Source: Okamejei kenojei
Taxonomy: Eukaryota
Direction: 5' to 3'
Length of the DNA: 64,000 nucleotides
Assembly: GCA_035221665.1 (NCBI GenBank)
Contig: CM069162.1
Location: 24,862,001 to 24,926,000, forward strand
The translations under genes and the position numbers were made by a program. Of the stretch, positions 31,962 to 61,580 are shown piece after piece. The notes beneath the pieces are model-generated. The model did no database searches. It was not told the DNA's origin and worked only from the letters and a program-made list of their open reading frames with translations. The first letter of the stretch is position 1. Each line of letters starts with the position of its first letter.

Positions 31962-32258
31962 CTGTGGAGAAAGAAGAAAGTGGGGTTTAATATATTTTAC
32001 ATGTTACTTGGATAAGGATGTTACTTTTTGTTTTAAAGATTTGTTTTCAATCTTAGCTATCACTGCTTTCATTTCCATTTCCCCTCCCTGATTCTCCTCA
32101 TACCCAAGATTTTCTGAACCTAAAAGTACCTAAGATTAATTATTTTAAATCAAAATATAATTTATTTTCAGGGTGAAACATAGTAATAATCATCCCCAGG
32201 TTATTTTGTACCACTGGATGCTCAGACCGAGCATTTCCTGCTCATCAGTCACCCTTGT

Positions 32259-32383
32259 GGGGTGGAAGATTGCCACCTTCTCGTGGTCCACCTGCTTCGA
32301 CGAATGCAATCAACCCGGCGTGCACAATCAAATAGAACAAGTTGTCCTACAACTTTAGGCTGTGCACACTATACGCAAGAAGA
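32259..32383 (+). mobile_element. Short non-autonomous retroposon (Ingi/Vingi-like 3' end) with 5' HDV-like ribozyme, copy 1
   Basis: TSD agtcacccttgtg (32247..32259) / agtcacccctgtg (32384..32396); ATACGCAAGAAGA tail; homologous to 36379..36518. Confidence 0.8.
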
Positions 32384-33349
32384 AGTCACCCCTGTGAATC
32401 GAAACAATTTCTTATTCTGTATAGGATACTCCATTTCCAACCAACACATTTTTTGAGCACTGCAAGGACATTTGGATATCTCTGTCCTAGTGAGTCCTGT
32501 ACTATGCATGACAGGGCAATATGGTCTTCCTATCACAGAAACAAACTGGAAGGCCTACCAGGTACTAATGAAGTAAGTACCGTAAGTTTGAATTAAGTTT
32601 CCCATAACAGCTGTCCACTGGCAATCTCACAACACCTATTTAGTAACAATTACACTGTACCTTGCTGACGTTATATTTTTGTAAAATAATTTCTAGCTTG
32701 ATGACTCACGTACTTTTGAATTTGAGTTGACTGCAACATTTTTCTCTGGCAAGTAGCCCATTCCTCAATTTGGAGTTTCTTGCCAAGCCTTTCCGTTGTT
32801 AAAACCATGGATCAAAGAGCTGATGGCATTGAAGGCAAGGCTTGATTGTTGAAGGGCAATTGTCTCATCATAGCAACTATTTTTTGATTAATTTTACCCA
32901 AGAAAATCCCCTATAATGTGTTCCCGCTTAATAAAAAGCAGTGGATTTATACTGATTAAAATCTTAATTTGCAATGTCATACTTGGTGCAGTACCAATAA
33001 TTATGGGATTTTTGTTTTCTGGCTGGCTGATTTTCAGCAAGATGCTACAATTATTTTCATTGCCAGCTTTAATAGATGTATTCAAGGTGCTCAACTGTGA
33101 AACAAGCAGATCAACCAGACCTAGTGACGGCTAATGAGCAATCCTATTGGGTAATTAGCATTCTCAAATCCATGGGAATGGTATCTACAAACTCAATTAT
33201 TTACTATCCATAATCTTAATGTTGGTAGCTTAGCTGCGTTTATATGGGGTTGCCTGTGCATGTGTGAAAGCGTGCATTAGAGTGCATGTGAATTACTAAT
33301 CCTTTAATTTTGAAGTCTGTTTTCAAAATGAACTCCAGATTGTTAATTT

Positions 33350-33603
33350 ATAGAAACATAGAAACATAGAAATTAGGTGCAGGAGCAGGCCATTCGGCCC
33401 TTCGAGCCTGCACCGCCATTCAATATGATCATGGCTGATCATCCAACTCAGTATCCTGTATCTGCCTTCTCTCCATACCCCCTGATCCCTTCAGCCACAA
33501 GGGCCACATCCAACTCCCTCTTAAATATGGCCTACGAACTGGCCTCAACTACCTTCTGTGGCAGAGAATTCCACAGATTCACCACTCTCCGTGTGAAAAA
33601 TGA
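33350..33603 (-). mobile_element. CR1/HER1 3'-end fragment
   Basis: (ATAGAAAC)n tail then ggtgcaggagcaggccattcggcccttcgagcc. Confidence 0.88.
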
Positions 33604-33786
33604 GTAGTAATTATAATTGGTAGGTATGACTACTGAAACATTACATTAGTGTACATGAAAGATTTTTAAAGACAAAATAGTCCATATAACTTTCTTCCTC
33701 TGGAATTTTAGCAAGGGCATGTTGTGCATGATGGGAACAACTATTTAATTCTTTCTGTGACCATCATGGCTCTGATCATATTTTAT

Positions 33787-33790
<4 letters not shown>

Positions 33791-33830
<40 letters not shown>
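33791..33830. repeat. (TA)20 microsatellite
   Basis: Perfect dinucleotide run next to a LINE 3' end. Confidence 0.97.
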
Positions 33831-33834
<4 letters not shown>

Positions 33835-33839
33835 TTTTA

Positions 33840-34445
33840 AATTTATTTTTATTAGAAGCAATTGTACAAGGATAAGATGATCGGCATAACAATTATACAA
33901 TTATTGTACAACTTCATTTTTAACCGTATAACCTAAATTTAAAAAAAAGAAAAACGAAAAAGAAAGGAAAACAAGGAAAGAAGAACAAAAATAGAATGAA
34001 GAGATGAAATAGAAATGAGCAGGAAAAAGACCCCTAAGCTACCAAAGCAGTGCAGAAGAGAGAAAAGGAAATAGGAAAAGAAAAGATGGCAATATATCTC
34101 CCCCCCCCCTCACCCATCATGGCATTGGATTTAAATTTAAATTTGTGTTTAACCATTCTGTTGTTGTAAAAATTCAGTAAATGGTATCCATGTCTTAAGA
34201 AATTGATCTGTTTTTTCCGCCAAGACAAGCCTAATGTTTTCCAAATGTAGTGTCTCGGACATATCTGTAATCCACATCTTCACTGTGGGGACTGTTGTGT
34301 TTCCAAAATTTAAGTATTAATTTTTCACCATTATTAGGCCGTAATTGAGGAAACGTCTTTGAAATATCGTTAGCTAAGAGCAGGCCTCTGACATACCTAA
34401 TATGATCAGTTTTATATCTGGGTCCTATATTTTTTTTATGACAAA
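33840..34445 (-). mobile_element. L1/Tx1-like LINE 3' fragment
   Basis: Minus strand ends in AATAAAAATAAA after a pyrimidine-rich UTR; remnant ...FLKTWIPF... C-terminal pattern. Confidence 0.55.
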
Positions 34446-35359
34446 GGTGATCGATCATTTGGCACATTGAGCAACTCCATCAATCCCATTCCCCCATATA
34501 TTTCCATGTAACCTATTCTCTCTCGCATGATTATTAATTCCACCAGATTCTCTTGCCACCCACTTGTAAATTGAGTCATTTATTGCTTACTATCCTATCA
34601 AACAGCAAGTCCTTTGGGTGTCATCATGTTTTCACACAAGTCAAACCTATTGCTAGAGAAATGTATCATTTGAAAATACCATAATGGAATAAGATTCCAG
34701 CATCTGCAGATTCTTGTGTCACCATTGTGATAGTCATTTTTTTAAAAATGTTTTGTGATCACCTCCAAAATTGCACAAGTAGAGAAATAATGTATTATAT
34801 ATAGTTCCTCAATCATTTTTCAATGCTTCAGTGATTTACAATCAAAATTACAACAGACATACAGTACATTGAGTGCTGTGCAGAACACTTTGCAGCCAGT
34901 TTAGGTTCTACAAGGGTCCATTGATTGAAACATATTCTTTCTATGCCAATGTAATTCAGGTGATGGTCAGCACAAAGCATTTTAATTTGGCAAGACATAA
35001 TTTAAAGGTAGATTTGAAGTATTTCTTCAATTCATTATAATCTCTGCTAAAAAGATTGAGATATTCATAACATTAACAGTTAGAAATACTTCCAAAGATC
35101 AGCTGAATGGTCTATGAGTACTTCTATTTACCAGTAAATATACTTCAATTAACAATAACCCAGAGAACAAAAGATAAAAATGGGAGCAATTTGAAAGATG
35201 ACTGATAACATTTTCATAATCCTCTGACAGTTTCTGAATACTTCTCTTTGTTTGTTTATCCTAAAATCTCAATCTCAGTAGCAATCCAGATATGTAGTTG
35301 CAAAACAGCAAGCTCTATCAATTATACAGAAGGTTACCTCATGTCTTGGCTAATGGTTT

Positions 35360-35560
35360 AAGACAAAGTGCTGGAGTAAGTCGGGGGTCCGGGCAGCATC
35401 GCTGGAGAACACGGATAGTCAACATTTTGGGTTGGGATCCTTCCTCAGTCCCGACCTGAAACTTTGAATATCTATATTCTCCAGATATGCTGCCTGACCT
35501 GCTGTGTAACTTCAGCACTTTAAATCTTTTTTTTGTAAACCAGCCTCTGCAGTTCCTTTT
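35360..35560. mobile_element. Inverted pair of Penelope-type terminal fragments
   Basis: aaagtgctggagtaa...gcagcatc versus atatgctgcctgacctgctgtgtaacttcagcacttt; related fragments at about 1700, 4200, 39650, 49800, 63870. Confidence 0.6.
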
Positions 35561-36378
35561 GTCTGGATAATGAATTAGATGGCCAAGTTTACCAACCATA
35601 CAGTGATAAATGGTGGTAGGCATTGAAGGTGAAAATATAAATTAGAATGAGATAATGGGGATGATCAGCCATGATCACATTGAATGGCGGTGCTGGCTCG
35701 AAGGGCCAAATGACCTCCTCCTGCACCTATTGTCTATTGTTGAGATTTAACAACTCTGTGATAGATCGATTTTGATGCAGATAAATATGAGACCAGTCAC
35801 TTTGCATTCAGCAAGGACGGGATGGACTAATTTTAAATGAGGAAATCTAGAATTAATGTCCAAACAAATTTAAGAGGTGCACCTAAATAGATAATGGATA
35901 CATACAGATAATAATCAATAGAAGTTAGTTGTGTGAATTTACTTGCTTCACAAATTAGCTGTGACCCCAGTGAACTGCAGAAAGACTCAAGGGGCTAAAT
36001 AGATTACTCCTGTTCCCAACTTCTTATGCCTTGCAAAATGTGAGTTAAACTTAATGTTTTAAAAAAAATTTAAAAAGTGTGGTGCACATGGCTTTAAAAC
36101 ATCACAATTGATCAAGAGACAACATTTGATGAATTAGCAATGTAATAGTAATTAAATATATTTTGCCTTTAAACACAACTATTTTGTGCATTTCTTTTGT
36201 TTTACTGCAATTCTCAGCAATTCTTTACATAGATACATAGACACATGGACAATAGGCGCAGGAGTAGGCCATTCGGCCCTTCGAGCCAGCACTGCCATTC
36301 AATGTGATCATGGCTGATCATCCACAATCAGTACCCCATTCCTGCCTTCTCCCCATACCCCTTGATTCCGCAAGCCCT

Positions 36379-36518
36379 TCTTCTTCTTCTTTCGTGTGGC
36401 GTGCACAGCCTAAAGTTGTAGGACAACTTGTCCTACTTGATCTTCTGTTTGTACACGTCGAGTTGATTGCATTAGTCGAAACAGGGCGGACCACGTGAAG
36501 GTTGCAATCTTCCACCCC
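36379..36518 (-). mobile_element. Short non-autonomous retroposon with (GAA)n tail, copy 2
   Basis: TSD ccgcaagccct (36368..36378) / ccgcaaaccct (36519..36529); minus strand ends CCACACGAAAGAAGAAGAAGA. Confidence 0.85.
36465..36518 (-). ncRNA. Predicted minimal HDV-like (CPEB3-type) self-cleaving ribozyme, 54 nt
   Basis: GGGGUGG-AA-GAUUGCA-ACC-UUCACGU-GGU-CCGCCCU-GU-UUCGA-CUAA-UGCAAUC: P1 7 bp with G1-U wobble, P2 7 bp, P3 3 bp, CPEB3-like L3, J4/2 CUAA. Confidence 0.75.
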
Positions 36519-37242
36519 CCGCAAACCCTAAGAGCTCTATATAAGTCTCTTTTGAATGCATCCAGTGAATCGGCCTCAACAGCCTTCTGCGGCAGAGAAT
36601 TCCACAAATTCACAACTCTGTGTGTGAAAAGGTTTTTCCTGATCTCAGTTCTAAATGGCCTACCTCTTATTCTTAAATTATGGCCCCTGGTTCTGGACTC
36701 CCCCAACATCGGGAACATGTTTCATGCATCTAGCATGTCCAATCCCATAATAATTTAATGTTTCTATAAGATTCCCTCTCATCCTTCTAAATTCCAGTGA
36801 ATACAAGCCCAGTCGCTCCATTCTTTCATCATATGACAGTCTACATGATTAAACAGGAAGATATCAAAGCACCATTAATTGGTCAACATGATTTATATTA
36901 TGATAGCGCTAAATAACACAATTTCATGAGATTTGTTAAGAAACACATTACAATATTTGAAGTAACCAGCAATAGTTCTCATAGTCCAGAGCTAAATACC
37001 AATTGTAAGAAGTGCAACTATAGAAAATGAATCAACTGTTAGGATGTCCCAGCACTGCAGAAGAGGAATAGGACAATTATTGTCATGAAAATTCTAGGCT
37101 GGATGCAACAAAGTTGGGCAATCCTTGTTTACTGAGTTATTAGGTTGAGAAATTATTCCAATTCAAAAATAAAACAGAACAATCTGCTTGATTCATGCAT
37201 CATGCTGTACTCTGCAATGATCATAAAGGTTAGATGACCTAC

Positions 37243-37322
37243 TTGCCAGCTGCATAAACCTCTGCAGTGTCAAAGAGGTTAATTCCATTCTCATAGGCCA
37301 GTGTCATCAGCTGTTCAGCCAT
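37243..37322 (-). CDS. KCNAB2: KCNAB2 exon [26 protein letters not shown](K)
   Basis: 80 nt, AG/GT borders; carries the aldo-keto reductase catalytic Asp and Tyr (DTAEVY). Confidence 0.97.
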
Positions 37323-56416: not shown

Positions 56417-57706
56417 CTAGACTAAGTGGGACCCGTTGGGTGCCAGCATCACATGGAGGGGGCTGGTCCCCCAATGCAATATTCCACCTCTCCAACATTT
56501 CCAATATTGGTGGCCAGTGGGGGGAGGGGAGGGGGCTTTCTGGAGCGCTAGTATGGGTGTTGTACGCTGAAGGGACTGGTTTCCAGAGGGCTAGTATGGA
56601 CATTGTGGGCCGAATGGATTCTTGGGCTGGCAGCTCACTCACTCACGGCTGGTGGGCTGGCAGTTGACTCATGGCTATTCCTTGAAATTCCATTTCAAGC
56701 AGGGTGCATGGGCACCAAATTCAAGTGCAGTTTCATACCATTTCAAGCAGGGTGCAAGGCCACTAAAGACAGCGCGTCATGATCTCTCCCTCCCCCATCT
56801 TGCAGAGACTGAGCCACGCCCACACTTCCGGGTTTTATAGTCCCTCTCCCCCTCCCACAAGAAAGGGCATGGCCTTCAGGGCATGATTGACAGGAGAGAG
56901 AATCTCAACATTTTTTAAACTAATAACTCTTTTATTTTTCATCGATGGGAAAAGTCCTTGGCACCCGATGAGCGGAGGCGGACTCTGGGTAAGATGGCCA
57001 AAAATCACAGCCGTACATAGTAGCGTTTTTACTAAAATTAATATAAAGCACAAACAAGACGTGGTAAAGATTAGACATTTAATTATATAGAAGGCAAGGC
57101 AGCTCGCTTTAGCACTTTCAAAACCAAAGGCAAGGCAGCTCGCTTTAGCACTTTCAAAACCAAAGGCAACACAGCTTGCTTTAGCATTTTCAAAACCAAA
57201 GGCAACACTGCTTGCTTTAGCGCTTTCAAAACCAAAGGCAACACAGCTTGCGTTAGCACTTTCAAAACCAAAGGCAACACAACTTTCAAACCAAAATACA
57301 CTTTTGCATTTTCAAACTTCATTTTCAAACCACATTAAGGGCACTGACAGGTCAGTAAAACCACTCACAGTTTAGTAGACATTTGTTCAGTGTTATTCAC
57401 AGCTCAGACTGAGAATTGCGACCTCTCGCTCCCCCATCTTGCAGAGAACTGAGGCATCTCCAAACCTCTGGGTTTTATAGTCCCTCCGAAAGGGGCATGG
57501 CCTTTAGGAGAGAGAATCTAAACAGTTTTTAAACACTAATAACTCTTTTATTTTTCATCGATGGGAAAAATCCTCTTGTCCTGTGCAGCGAAGGGAGACT
57601 CTGAGTCAGATGGCCAAAAATCACAGCCGTAAGTGGCAGCGTTTTTTCTAAAATCAATATATAGAACAACAGGAAGTGGTCAAGATCAGACATTTAGTAA
57701 TATAGA
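56417..57706 (-). mobile_element. Non-autonomous Helitron, composite
   Basis: Minus strand 5'-TC (TCTATATTACTAAA), 3'-CTAG preceded by the hairpin GGCACCCAACGGGTCCC; inserted between A and T with no TSD. Confidence 0.85.
57091..57296. repeat. 36-bp minisatellite, about 5-6 units, inside the Helitron
   Basis: Unit aaaggcaaggcagctcgctttagcactttcaaaacc. Confidence 0.92.
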
Positions 57707-58948: not shown

Positions 58949-59880
58949 TTATAGTGCTCCCAACACCGCGTGTCCAAAGCTTGTCATAGTGTGAACAGGT
59001 TTGTTGTAGAACTTTGAAAAAGTTTCTTCTTTACTCCACCCTGCGATTTTTAAAAATATGCTCGAGAGGTACGTCCCGCCCCTTCGCCGCGGACGTAGCT
59101 GCCGCCCTGGTGGAGTGAGATTTGAAGACATCAGTGTCTACTCCCGCTAAAACCAACACCTGTTTCAACCATTTTGAGATAGTTTGAACTGAAGCTTTTG
59201 TGTGTGGCTTTTTGTGCGTAAGCAGCAATGTCTTTTCGTTTCCTCGAAAAGTGTCCGTCACTTTAATACATTGGTTCAAATGTCTAACCACACACAAAGC
59301 AAGCTCAATATGAAAAGCTTGAAAGGTTACCTTTGTTCCAGATCTCCCTGGTCTACTTTGTTTGATCAGATCGTAAACATAGAATACAACGTTATCTGTA
59401 GTCACATGCATACAGTCTAAACGCAACATTTGTAAAGTTTGCACTCTTTGGGCTGAGACCAGTGACATTAACATGACCAATTTCAATGTTAACCTATCCA
59501 ATGACAACCCTTCAATTGGCGTCCATTCTCTAAGTAGAGCAAGTACTATGCTCACATCCAAATCTCTGTATATCTAGGTTTTGGCGGATTCATGTGAAAA
59601 ATTCCTTTCATGAATCGTGATATTAATGGATGCGACCCAATTGATTTCTCACCAGTCATAAGTCCTAAATAGGACGACAAGGCACTGCGTGCAGTGTTAA
59701 TGGCACTGTAACTTAAATGTTGGCCAAAGCGCAAATTGGCAAGGAATTCCAAAACATGAGTAACATTCACATAATCATCAGAAATATTTTGACTGTGTGC
59801 AAAATTCTTCCCATTTCTTAATATGTGTCATATATTGTTTCTGTGTGCTATCTCGCCATGATGCGCCAATAACTGTCAAG
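58949..59880 (-). pseudogene. DIRS tyrosine recombinase (frameshifted)
   Basis: ORFs 59552..59770, 59031..59561, 58949..59131: LSYSAINTARSALS; SAQR; LIKQSRPG; HSTRAAATS; AGWS..TFSKFY. Confidence 0.9.
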
Positions 59881-59916
59881 TTTGGTCCGACAATCCCAGT
59901 TCCTGTAGTGGTCTGG

Positions 59917-61580
59917 TCAAAACCTGCAGATTAACAAATTCATATATGCATATAATGGGTAATCTTTATTTGTTACTGGATTAGTCAAGATATCACTACA
60001 GTTAAGAATCTGCATATACGGTTCTTTAATCATATTCAGCATAACTGGGAACCAAGGTTGAGTTGGCCAATTTGGCACTACCAACAATCCGGAAGCTGAA
60101 TCTTGCTCTATTTTCTTCAAGCATCTCTGGATCAGAGCAAATGGTGGAAAAGCATAAAAGAACATTTTTCCCCAGTGTAATAAAAAATGCATCTACTGCA
60201 ACTGCGTCCGGGTCGTGTTCCCAAGACACATAATGATGCAAGTGATGATTAAGCCTGGATGCAAACAAATCAATTTCTGGCAACCCAAATCGTCGAACAA
60301 TATTCTTAAATATTGCTGGCTTAAATATCCATTCCGTATTATCTTTAAAAATCCTGGACCTTTCATCTGCTACCACATTGTCTTTACCTGGAGTATAGCT
60401 TACTGCAATCCATATCTGCCGACCAATACACCATTGCCATATCTCATTGACCAGACAATCACATGATACTGATCCAACTCTCCCCATGTGATTAATGTAA
60501 ACCACAGCTGTTTTATTGTGTAATTGTATTAACACATGCAGACCTTGTTTAGCACAACAATATGCTTTAAGCCCATAAAAGGCCCCCAATAACTCCAAAT
60601 AGTTAATACCATACTCTTGGAGAAACACTTGTTCTTCAGTTTTCCATCTACCTCCACAACTGGAGGATAAATCTGTGGCCCCCCATCCGAGAGCACTAGC
60701 ATCTGTATGTAAAACCATTTCAGGCTGTTTGATCATAATATTTATTAGCAGCTTGTGGGACATTTTCCTTTTTTAACCCACCATTGTAAATTCCAATACA
60801 GCTTCTTTTGTTAATTACATAGGCCTGTCAAATGGCCTGCCTTCTCTTTGAGAGCTTGTATCTTGTACCTTCGAAGATATCAATAAATGTAATGAACCAA
60901 ATTCTACTGCAGGAAATGCTGCTAGCAGTTCACCAATGGTTGTCACCATTTCTCGGATGGAAGGATAAGGTTTTGAATGAGATAATGACAAGTTACCAAA
61001 ATATCATCGACTTTAACTGTTGGTAAAGGTATTAACATAGTCACTGAGTTAATTACAAACCCCAAAAGTAAATTGTTTGTGCTGGCTGCAGCTGGGGCTT
61101 AATTAGATGAATTAAGAACCTTAGCTTACCACAAAGCTTTAGTAACTGAAACTGAGTCCTCAGCTGACTCCTGATAATCACTAATGACCAGAATGTCATT
61201 GAGATAAGCCATAATGATGTGCATTTTGTGCTCTAATTGGGCTAAACTGGTTTCAACAGTTTCGTAAAGAGTAAAAAGCTGAACTCAGTCCATTTGGCAA
61301 AGCTTAACTGCCATAATTGTCACAACCAATTAAAATTTAAGTACTACCGAAACCTGATGCATAGGTACAGAATAATAAGCGTCTTTTCATCAATCTTAGC
61401 CATATAACAACCTGCTGAATTAAATATTTTGCAGTATTCAATGACTCCATTTGAACATGTTTGTATTCTACAAACTTATTTAGACCTGTAAGGTCCAGAA
61501 TACTTCTGCAACCATCATCTGTAATGCCTTCTAACATTAAAGACAAATTTATGCTTGTGTTCAAAATCTTTTCCATTACC
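59917..61580 (-). pseudogene. DIRS pol: RT, RNase H and adenine-methyltransferase-like domains (frameshifted)
   Basis: CRSILDLTGLNKFV; IMAYLNDILVI (YLDD position); HTDASALGWG...INYLELL; IDLFASRLN...DAF; YAFPPF...VVPNWPTQPWFP. Confidence 0.9.

Follow-up and report, generated by a model that had tools for sequence, protein, structure and literature searches.

The window analysed here is a 64,000-nucleotide stretch of the genome of Okamejei kenojei (contig CM069162.1). It contains two copies of a short insert, both located in one intron of a gene for a voltage-gated K+ channel beta-subunit (Kv-beta). Coordinates are collected in Table 1. The host gene was identified by matches to TIGR01293, with exon motifs at 37274 and 31948. 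It extends from about 8700 to 41100 on the minus strand and has at least 11 exons. Putative RNA contigs cover the Kv-beta exons; transcript ends, strand and level cannot be read from contigs of this kind.

The copy at 32259-32385 is 127 bases long. It opens with a G-run, its first base being G32259, and its (AAG)n tail is at 32383-32385. In line with the initial annotation, which described a diverged plus-strand copy with its own 13-bp target site duplication (TSD), 12 of 13 bases match between 32247-32259 and 32384-32396. This 13-bp reading takes one G from the start of the element and AG from its tail, and the unambiguous core is 10 bp. The part of the 5' UTR that follows the ribozyme is 10 nt shorter in the subfamily to which this copy belongs.

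The second copy (36379-36518) is 83% identical to the first over its aligned part, 36383-36518 on the minus strand (E 3e-36). All 18 of its predicted ribozyme pairs are intact. It is flanked by TSDs of 11 bp with one mismatch (36519-36529 and 36368-36378). The older repeat that it interrupts has other copies in the window, and these contain the target site once.

Table 1 Positions, in the window, of the two inserts, their parts and the host intron
Feature	Position	Strand	Remarks
Left TSD	32247..32259	+	13 bp in the maximal reading; last base doubles as the element's first G
Predicted minimal (P4-less) HDV-like ribozyme	32259..32311	+	Descriptor parse, family majority, covariation in related LINE heads; activity predicted
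P1	32260-32265/32288-32293	+	6 bp in this copy, against 7 bp in the family
P2	32268-32273/32306-32311	+	6 bp
P3	32275-32277/32285-32287	+	ACC/GGT
L3	32278-32284	+	TTCTCGT
P1.1	C32280-G32294	+	Single pair
Predicted catalytic C	C32301	+	J4/2 CGAA; L4 of 6 nt
Rest of LINE 5' UTR	32312..32336	+	Predicted pairing of its first half with the 3' tail
Short junction in place of ~2.9 kb LINE body	32337..32341	+	Comparison with LINE copies
LINE 3' end	32342..32385	+	Last ORF codons and stop, short 3' UTR ending ATACG, (AAG)n tail
Right TSD	32384..32396	+	12/13 identical to left TSD
Second copy, CTAA subfamily	36379..36518	-	Inserted within an older repeat; same orientation as the host gene
Host intron of Kv-beta	31970..37240 (approximate)	-	Holds both copies

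A dispersed family and its partner LINE

A first look at the genome gave 1,321 candidate copies. Exact-pattern counts then found 4,320 occurrences of a 23-nt tail, 827 of its LINE-type variant and 4,918 of a 34-nt ribozyme core; the reversed patterns used as controls for tail and core gave none. Capture-recapture over 38.9 Mb at the start of contig C1, where lists of 92 and 100 copies share 23, puts the copy number at ~19,000, a rough figure because the two marks behind the lists are not fully independent.

We examined 91 loci, 89 sampled from the genome plus the two window copies. They comprise 78 full-length mini-elements, 6 that are truncated at the 5' end and 7 LINE 3' ends. The mini-elements measure 127-137 nt and have no ORF. 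TSDs of 7-18 bp flank 59 of the 78 full-length ones, against ~2.4 expected from swapped flanks. Together with the 4,918 exact cores, these insertion marks bear out the mini-retroposon family that had been proposed from two copies. In 43 of the 59 copies with a TSD, the left duplication stops at G1 of the predicted ribozyme or one base further on, and 47 of 53 mini-elements selected by their tail begin within 8 nt of G1. Four subfamilies are distinguished among 74 copies, a set drawn from the 78 in which three copies with duplicated flanks and one further locus were left out. Mean non-CpG divergence from the own majority is 2-4%, in a best-match sample that favours young copies. The oldest-looking subfamily is identical to the LINE head at every base, with U-A in P1 and CTAA in J4/2. 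Later subfamilies have U.G in P1, and two of them have CGAA. Contigs of four runs from four organisms match the element; they cannot show its ends, strand or level.

Seven of 30 sampled tail matches continue upstream into the end of an ORF with a Cys/His knuckle. At 13 of 30 loci from a search with the 5' region, the head of the mini-element is followed by an ORF. These 13 loci share its first ~80 nt, and they include L128, a full-length copy that measures 3,043 bp and is flanked by a TSD of 8 bp. L124 is nearly full length and lacks the first 9 nt. At the other end, the last ~39-44 nt of the mini-element are 84-95% identical to the ends of LINE loci. Since the LINE loci share head and tail, the mini-element corresponds to LINE nucleotides 1 to ~80, joined through a few bases to the last ~44 nt of the LINE. 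A LINE with both ends in common, which the initial annotation had called for, is thereby in hand.

The LINE pieces match Pfam Exo_endo_phos and RVT_1. They cover residues 31-1019 of their closest intact relative, P0001, a protein of 1,019 aa (75% identity over the reverse transcriptase piece) that contains an endonuclease as well as a reverse transcriptase, with no RNase H match. All LINE copies examined are broken, and their pairwise identity is ~89-90%. The partner appears to be a Vingi-like LINE of ~3.04 kb, with a single ORF for endonuclease and reverse transcriptase and without RNase H. Vingi elements are described as compact, with one ORF that encodes an APE endonuclease and a reverse transcriptase and no RNase H (PMC13708176). 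The partner has this architecture, which is the basis for calling it Vingi-like; the matches to homologues carry no clade names.

Two observations on the LINE copies may be added. Seven of the 13 that reach the head (L094, L095, L097, L099, L105, L115 and L117) lack the first ~6-13 nt, in contrast to the tail-selected mini-elements, nearly all of which begin close to G1. In these LINEs, the folded P1/P2 may cause the reverse transcriptase to stall. In addition, mini-elements sit in sense orientation inside two partner-LINE copies (L125:2365-2500 and L102:1362-1497, oriented coordinates), so mini-elements were active after those LINE copies had landed.

An autonomous-type LINE of the same genome thus provides matches to both parts of the family, its 5' end to the 5' part and its 3' end to the 3' part. 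There are many independent insertions with a TSD and a simple-repeat tail, and no ORF. By these features the family can be classed as a SIDE, that is, a bipartite non-autonomous LINE. Mobilisation in trans is suggested by the shared tail and by LINE biology. Bipartite non-autonomous LINEs are known from RTE, Ingi, Vingi and R2 (PMC5786205). The initial annotation had spoken of a SINE-like family of ~130 nt made of a ribozyme and a LINE tail. The composition and the size are as described; SIDE is nevertheless the appropriate term rather than SINE, because both ends, the head included, derive from the LINE.

We also considered a classical Pol III SINE, in which a small-RNA head would be joined to a LINE tail and the ribozyme likeness would be due to chance. 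In its size and its high copy number the family resembles a SINE, and neither Rfam nor nested-fold energy flags the head (see below). This reading is nonetheless highly improbable. The head comes from the 5' end of the LINE itself and is not of tRNA, 7SL, 5S or snRNA type. A search of the 64-kb window found no tRNA gene, and neither copy has a match to the A/B boxes of an internal Pol III promoter, so that the earlier remark on the lack of a tRNA-derived Pol III head was correct. The structural descriptor described below is also highly selective in the window. Full-length L128, which carries the same head, rules the Pol III SINE reading out.

Predicted ribozyme fold and its decay

The head was analysed with a pseudoknot descriptor and parses as the HDV-like nested double pseudoknot of P1, P2, P3 and P1.1 with the G1 wobble, P1.1 being one pair only. 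On both strands of the window (128 kb), the descriptor finds exactly two places, which are the two copies. With the catalytic C swapped for A, G or T it finds none. The structure read by eye in the initial annotation for the 32259-32385 copy, from the 6-bp P1 and P2 to P3, L3 and the CGAA of J4/2, was reproduced in this way. In the family majority, the fold takes 54 nt. It consists of a 7-bp P1 with the G1 wobble, a 2-nt J1/2, a 7-bp P2, a 3-bp P3 and a 7-nt L3. P1.1 is a single pair, a loop of 6 nt stands where P4 would be, and J4/2 has 4 nt, the first of which is C. The catalytic C is the first position of J4/2 in both window copies. The same C, the G1 wobble and the P1.1 pair are present in all four subfamily majorities. 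The CGAA form of J4/2 is a subfamily trait, where the LINE has CTAA.

The head is predicted to be a minimal, P4-less HDV-like ribozyme that would cut 5' of G1, and the 5' ends of the elements map to this predicted site in 43 of 59 copies. Its cleavage rate may be low, given the single-pair P1.1 and the 6-nt L4. Rfam searches at the gathering threshold and at E<=10 gave no ribozyme match for either window copy; the curated HDV-like models include P4. The nested-fold energy of the whole elements is not above that of shuffles (z -0.5 and -1.8), a measure that is uninformative for pseudoknots.

Four changes are private, or nearly so, to the 32259-32385 copy: a one-base deletion in P1, A>C in P2, A>T in L3 and T>C in L4. 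Three of them are seen in 1 of 74 copies and one in 2 of 74. The change in P2 opens the pair next to P3. Among inserted copies, substitutions affect 3.5% of stem positions (89/2540) and 3.4% of ribozyme loop positions (32/934), with 128/1086 at CpG. The comparison of stems and loops over the 74 copies shows no selection on the fold. As stems and loops mutate equally and only 40 of the 74 copies pass the descriptor, the changes in the 32259-32385 copy appear to be mostly private decay, not the result of selection. The earlier statement that changes largely preserve the fold therefore holds in the sense that this copy passes the descriptor, but not as a sign of selection.

This bears on the idea that the 32259-32385 copy was co-opted to regulate the Kv-beta pre-mRNA by self-cleavage. 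The copy is intronic and passes the descriptor, and the CPEB3 ribozyme offers a precedent (PMC6765202). It is, however, antisense to Kv-beta and consequently unable to cut the Kv-beta pre-mRNA; only the copy at 36379-36518 lies in sense. With its private lesions in P1 and P2 in addition, co-option of this copy is scarcely credible. The 32259-32385 copy is a decayed, antisense passenger of the family.

Related LINE heads

A search with a protein alignment yielded related LINE proteins at 75 metagenome loci. At seven of these, representing 6 distinct elements, an HDV-like parse precedes the ORF match by 120-260 nt. Each of the seven parses is in sense, with none in antisense in 272 kb. Controls at the catalytic position gave no match with A or G and two with T. 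Seventeen of the 24 metagenome loci with upstream sequence have no strict parse, several of them being short or degenerate. Unlike the mini-element, these heads contain P4. In Rfam (RF00622/RF02682), the CPEB3 model is matched by two of the related heads, one at 55.6 bits, above the cutoff, and the other at 27.7 bits; a further two match the F. prausnitzii HDV model weakly.

Eight heads were aligned with MAFFT over their 5' 38-40 nt. In this alignment, pairing holds in 96.6% of cells, and both partners vary in 6 of the 11 pairs. The covariation score is reached by 0 of 500 shuffles and slid controls drop to 40-58%, while the number of pairs and of pair types are reached by 43/500 and 53/500 shuffles. 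Covariation in P2 was read by eye from the parses. Because the eight rows include some that were picked by the descriptor, the set leans towards structure. Distant relatives of the LINE thus share the fold, and their differences include compensatory changes. The structural covariation expected by the initial annotation is found at this level, between distant LINE families, and not among the inserted copies of the mini-element.

A second predicted element links the two ends of the LINE. In the 32259-32385 copy, bases just after the ribozyme (32317-32326) may pair with bases preceding the terminal AYACG (32361-32370), which would form the 3' hairpin of the mini-element. In LINE loci, windows of the body are as good as the ends in 0/601 cases for L215, 3/574 for the partner LINE, 24/597 for L180 and 30/586 for L199. 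The pairing is strong in the own-genome majority and in L215, moderate in L180 and L199, absent in L166, undefined in L172 and weak on single decayed LINE copies. In the other LINEs it occupies the same position with unrelated sequence. The idea was drawn from the first of the cases that were then scored, and a 5' UTR-3' UTR pairing in this type of LINE is best regarded as a predicted feature and a lead.

One of the related heads deserves a separate mention. The 55.6-bit match to the Rfam model of the mammalian CPEB3 ribozyme (cutoff 35, E 1.6e-12) is L199:3751-3824 (= L200:2199-2272). It is nearly identical to the model in P1, P2, P3 and L3, and it begins exactly where an APE-RT LINE on a metagenome contig has its 5' end; this LINE is full length and flanked by a TSD. 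Among the papers listed in the literature searches, none derives the CPEB3 ribozyme from a LINE 5' end. The match raises the idea that the CPEB3 ribozyme may be the relic of such an end.

Proposed route of mobilisation and known systems

Taken together, the insert is very probably a short, internally deleted derivative of a Vingi/Ingi-type LINE of the same genome, and it is likely to spread by excising itself through its predicted ribozyme from read-through transcripts and borrowing the LINE endonuclease and reverse transcriptase. A sense copy would be transcribed from a host promoter or within an intron and would cleave itself 5' of G1, which would yield a defined, structured 5' end. The LINE protein would then bind the 3' end in trans and carry out target-primed reverse transcription, as expected from established LINE biology. 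Inserted copies would subsequently decay, consistent with the lack of selection on the fold noted above. This scheme has precedents in related systems. R2 SIDEs self-cleave in vitro, and their release from a co-transcript with mobilisation in trans has been proposed (PMC3414825). NARTc/SIDER also self-cleave in vitro (PMC4035085), and a similar proposal exists for dispersed intronic RTE/Baggins elements (PMC6765202).

With the same LINE-derived origin, the head could instead serve mainly to drive Pol II transcription from within the element and/or to protect the 5' end by its fold, self-cleavage being slow or dispensable. In L1Tc/NARTc, Pr77 acts as a promoter and also as a ribozyme (PMC3383444), and a stable HDV-like fold, as such, improves the use of R2 templates (PMC11331408). 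An internal promoter would likewise fix the position of the 5' end, and the reduced P1.1 and L4 may weaken catalysis. However, the catalytic C, the G1 wobble and the P1.1 pair are kept both in the subfamily majorities and in distant LINE families, and most 5' ends fall within one base of G1. We therefore regard this alternative as unlikely and favour release by self-cleavage.

R2 SIDEs of Drosophila resemble the present family in that they join a LINE 5' HDV-like ribozyme to a LINE 3' end, are non-autonomous and have a proposed release from a co-transcript (PMC3414825). R2Dwi_SIDE is 529 bp long, occupies one 28S rDNA site in few copies and uses the R2 (RLE) machinery (PMC3414825). The mini-elements described here are far shorter, have an APE-type partner and variable TSDs, and are dispersed. 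NARTc/RIME/SIDER of the trypanosomatid L1Tc/ingi clade are also dispersed, truncated LINEs that share both ends with their partner and start with an HDV-like ribozyme. Their head, from a protist, has 77 nt with P4 (PMC4035085), whereas the present one has 54 nt without P4, in a vertebrate with a partner that lacks RNase H. Vingi LINEs and their deleted derivatives, such as those of Vingi-1_EE, provide the third parallel, an RNase H-less APE-RT LINE that yields bipartite elements (PMC5786205, PMC13708176). No description of the family or of a Vingi ribozyme was found in the literature searched; a repeat-library name may exist. The family differs from the SIDEs described in its length of 127-137 nt, in having a 54-nt ribozyme without P4, and in its dispersal through a vertebrate genome at very high copy number.

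The range of ribozyme-headed SIDEs, which included trypanosomes and Drosophila rDNA, is thereby extended to a vertebrate, in which the family is dispersed and reaches a very high copy number. The results also indicate that Vingi-type LINEs have a 5' HDV-like ribozyme; Vingi is not among the clades with a 5' ribozyme in the list given in section 23 of PMC5786205. The ~130 nt that remain may represent the minimal cis-sequence of a LINE class, reached by natural deletion. This LINE class is under development for RNA-templated gene insertion (PMC13708176).

A broader reading is that a template of ~130 nt, consisting of the ribozyme and a 5'-3' stem read by a Vingi protein, has spread many thousands of active 54-nt ribozymes through a vertebrate genome; that sense copies are selected against because they frequently cut host pre-mRNAs; and that the same class of LINE 5' ends was the source of the mammalian CPEB3 ribozyme. 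We consider this reading doubtful, though conceivable. With thousands of intact cores, the strand bias of intact versus dead copies could be used to test whether co-transcriptional cleavage in introns harms splicing. As a proxy, same-strand neighbours were counted among 169 copies on C1. Within 100 kb there are 47 of 76, against 37.8 expected (P 0.023); five distances were tried, with P of 0.02-0.17, and the result is a hint only, without direction.

Minimal HDV-like (theta) ribozymes are also devoid of P4 and come almost only from phages (PMC10879173). They share with the present head the short J1/2 and L4 and the ACC/GGT of P3 (PMC10879173). The core motif ACC, TTCACGT, GGT, TTTCGA and CTAA/CGAA recurs, with one extra A, in 13 of the 127 theta rows compared (PMC10879173). 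Relative to the nearest of these rows, the present head is one base shorter after P1 and has a 6-nt L4 and a one-pair P1.1 instead of two pairs (PMC10879173). Theta ribozymes occur in gut phages next to a tRNA, whereas the present head is free of a tRNA and belongs to an animal retroposon (PMC10879173). The shortened core gave no match in viral contigs. P4-less ribozymes were already known in animals, from silkmoth R2 and abalone, and a 6-bp P1 is common (PMC3774820). The family thus points to a natural role for a P4-less minimal ribozyme outside phages. Theta rows such as 1782 and 1872 (PMC10879173, supplement 6) have a TC/GA P1.1 and a TTTCGA loop, with a core nearly equal to the LINE head. 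Some of the metagenomic matches listed as theta might come from eukaryotic LINEs.

Two further features of the window lie outside the Kv-beta intron. Broken ORFs at 59031-60772 on the minus strand include integrase-like, methyltransferase-like and RNase H/RT-like pieces, and presumably resemble a tyrosine-recombinase (DIRS-like) retroelement. A tandem repeat with a unit of ~33 bp, open in several frames, occupies 57075-57375.
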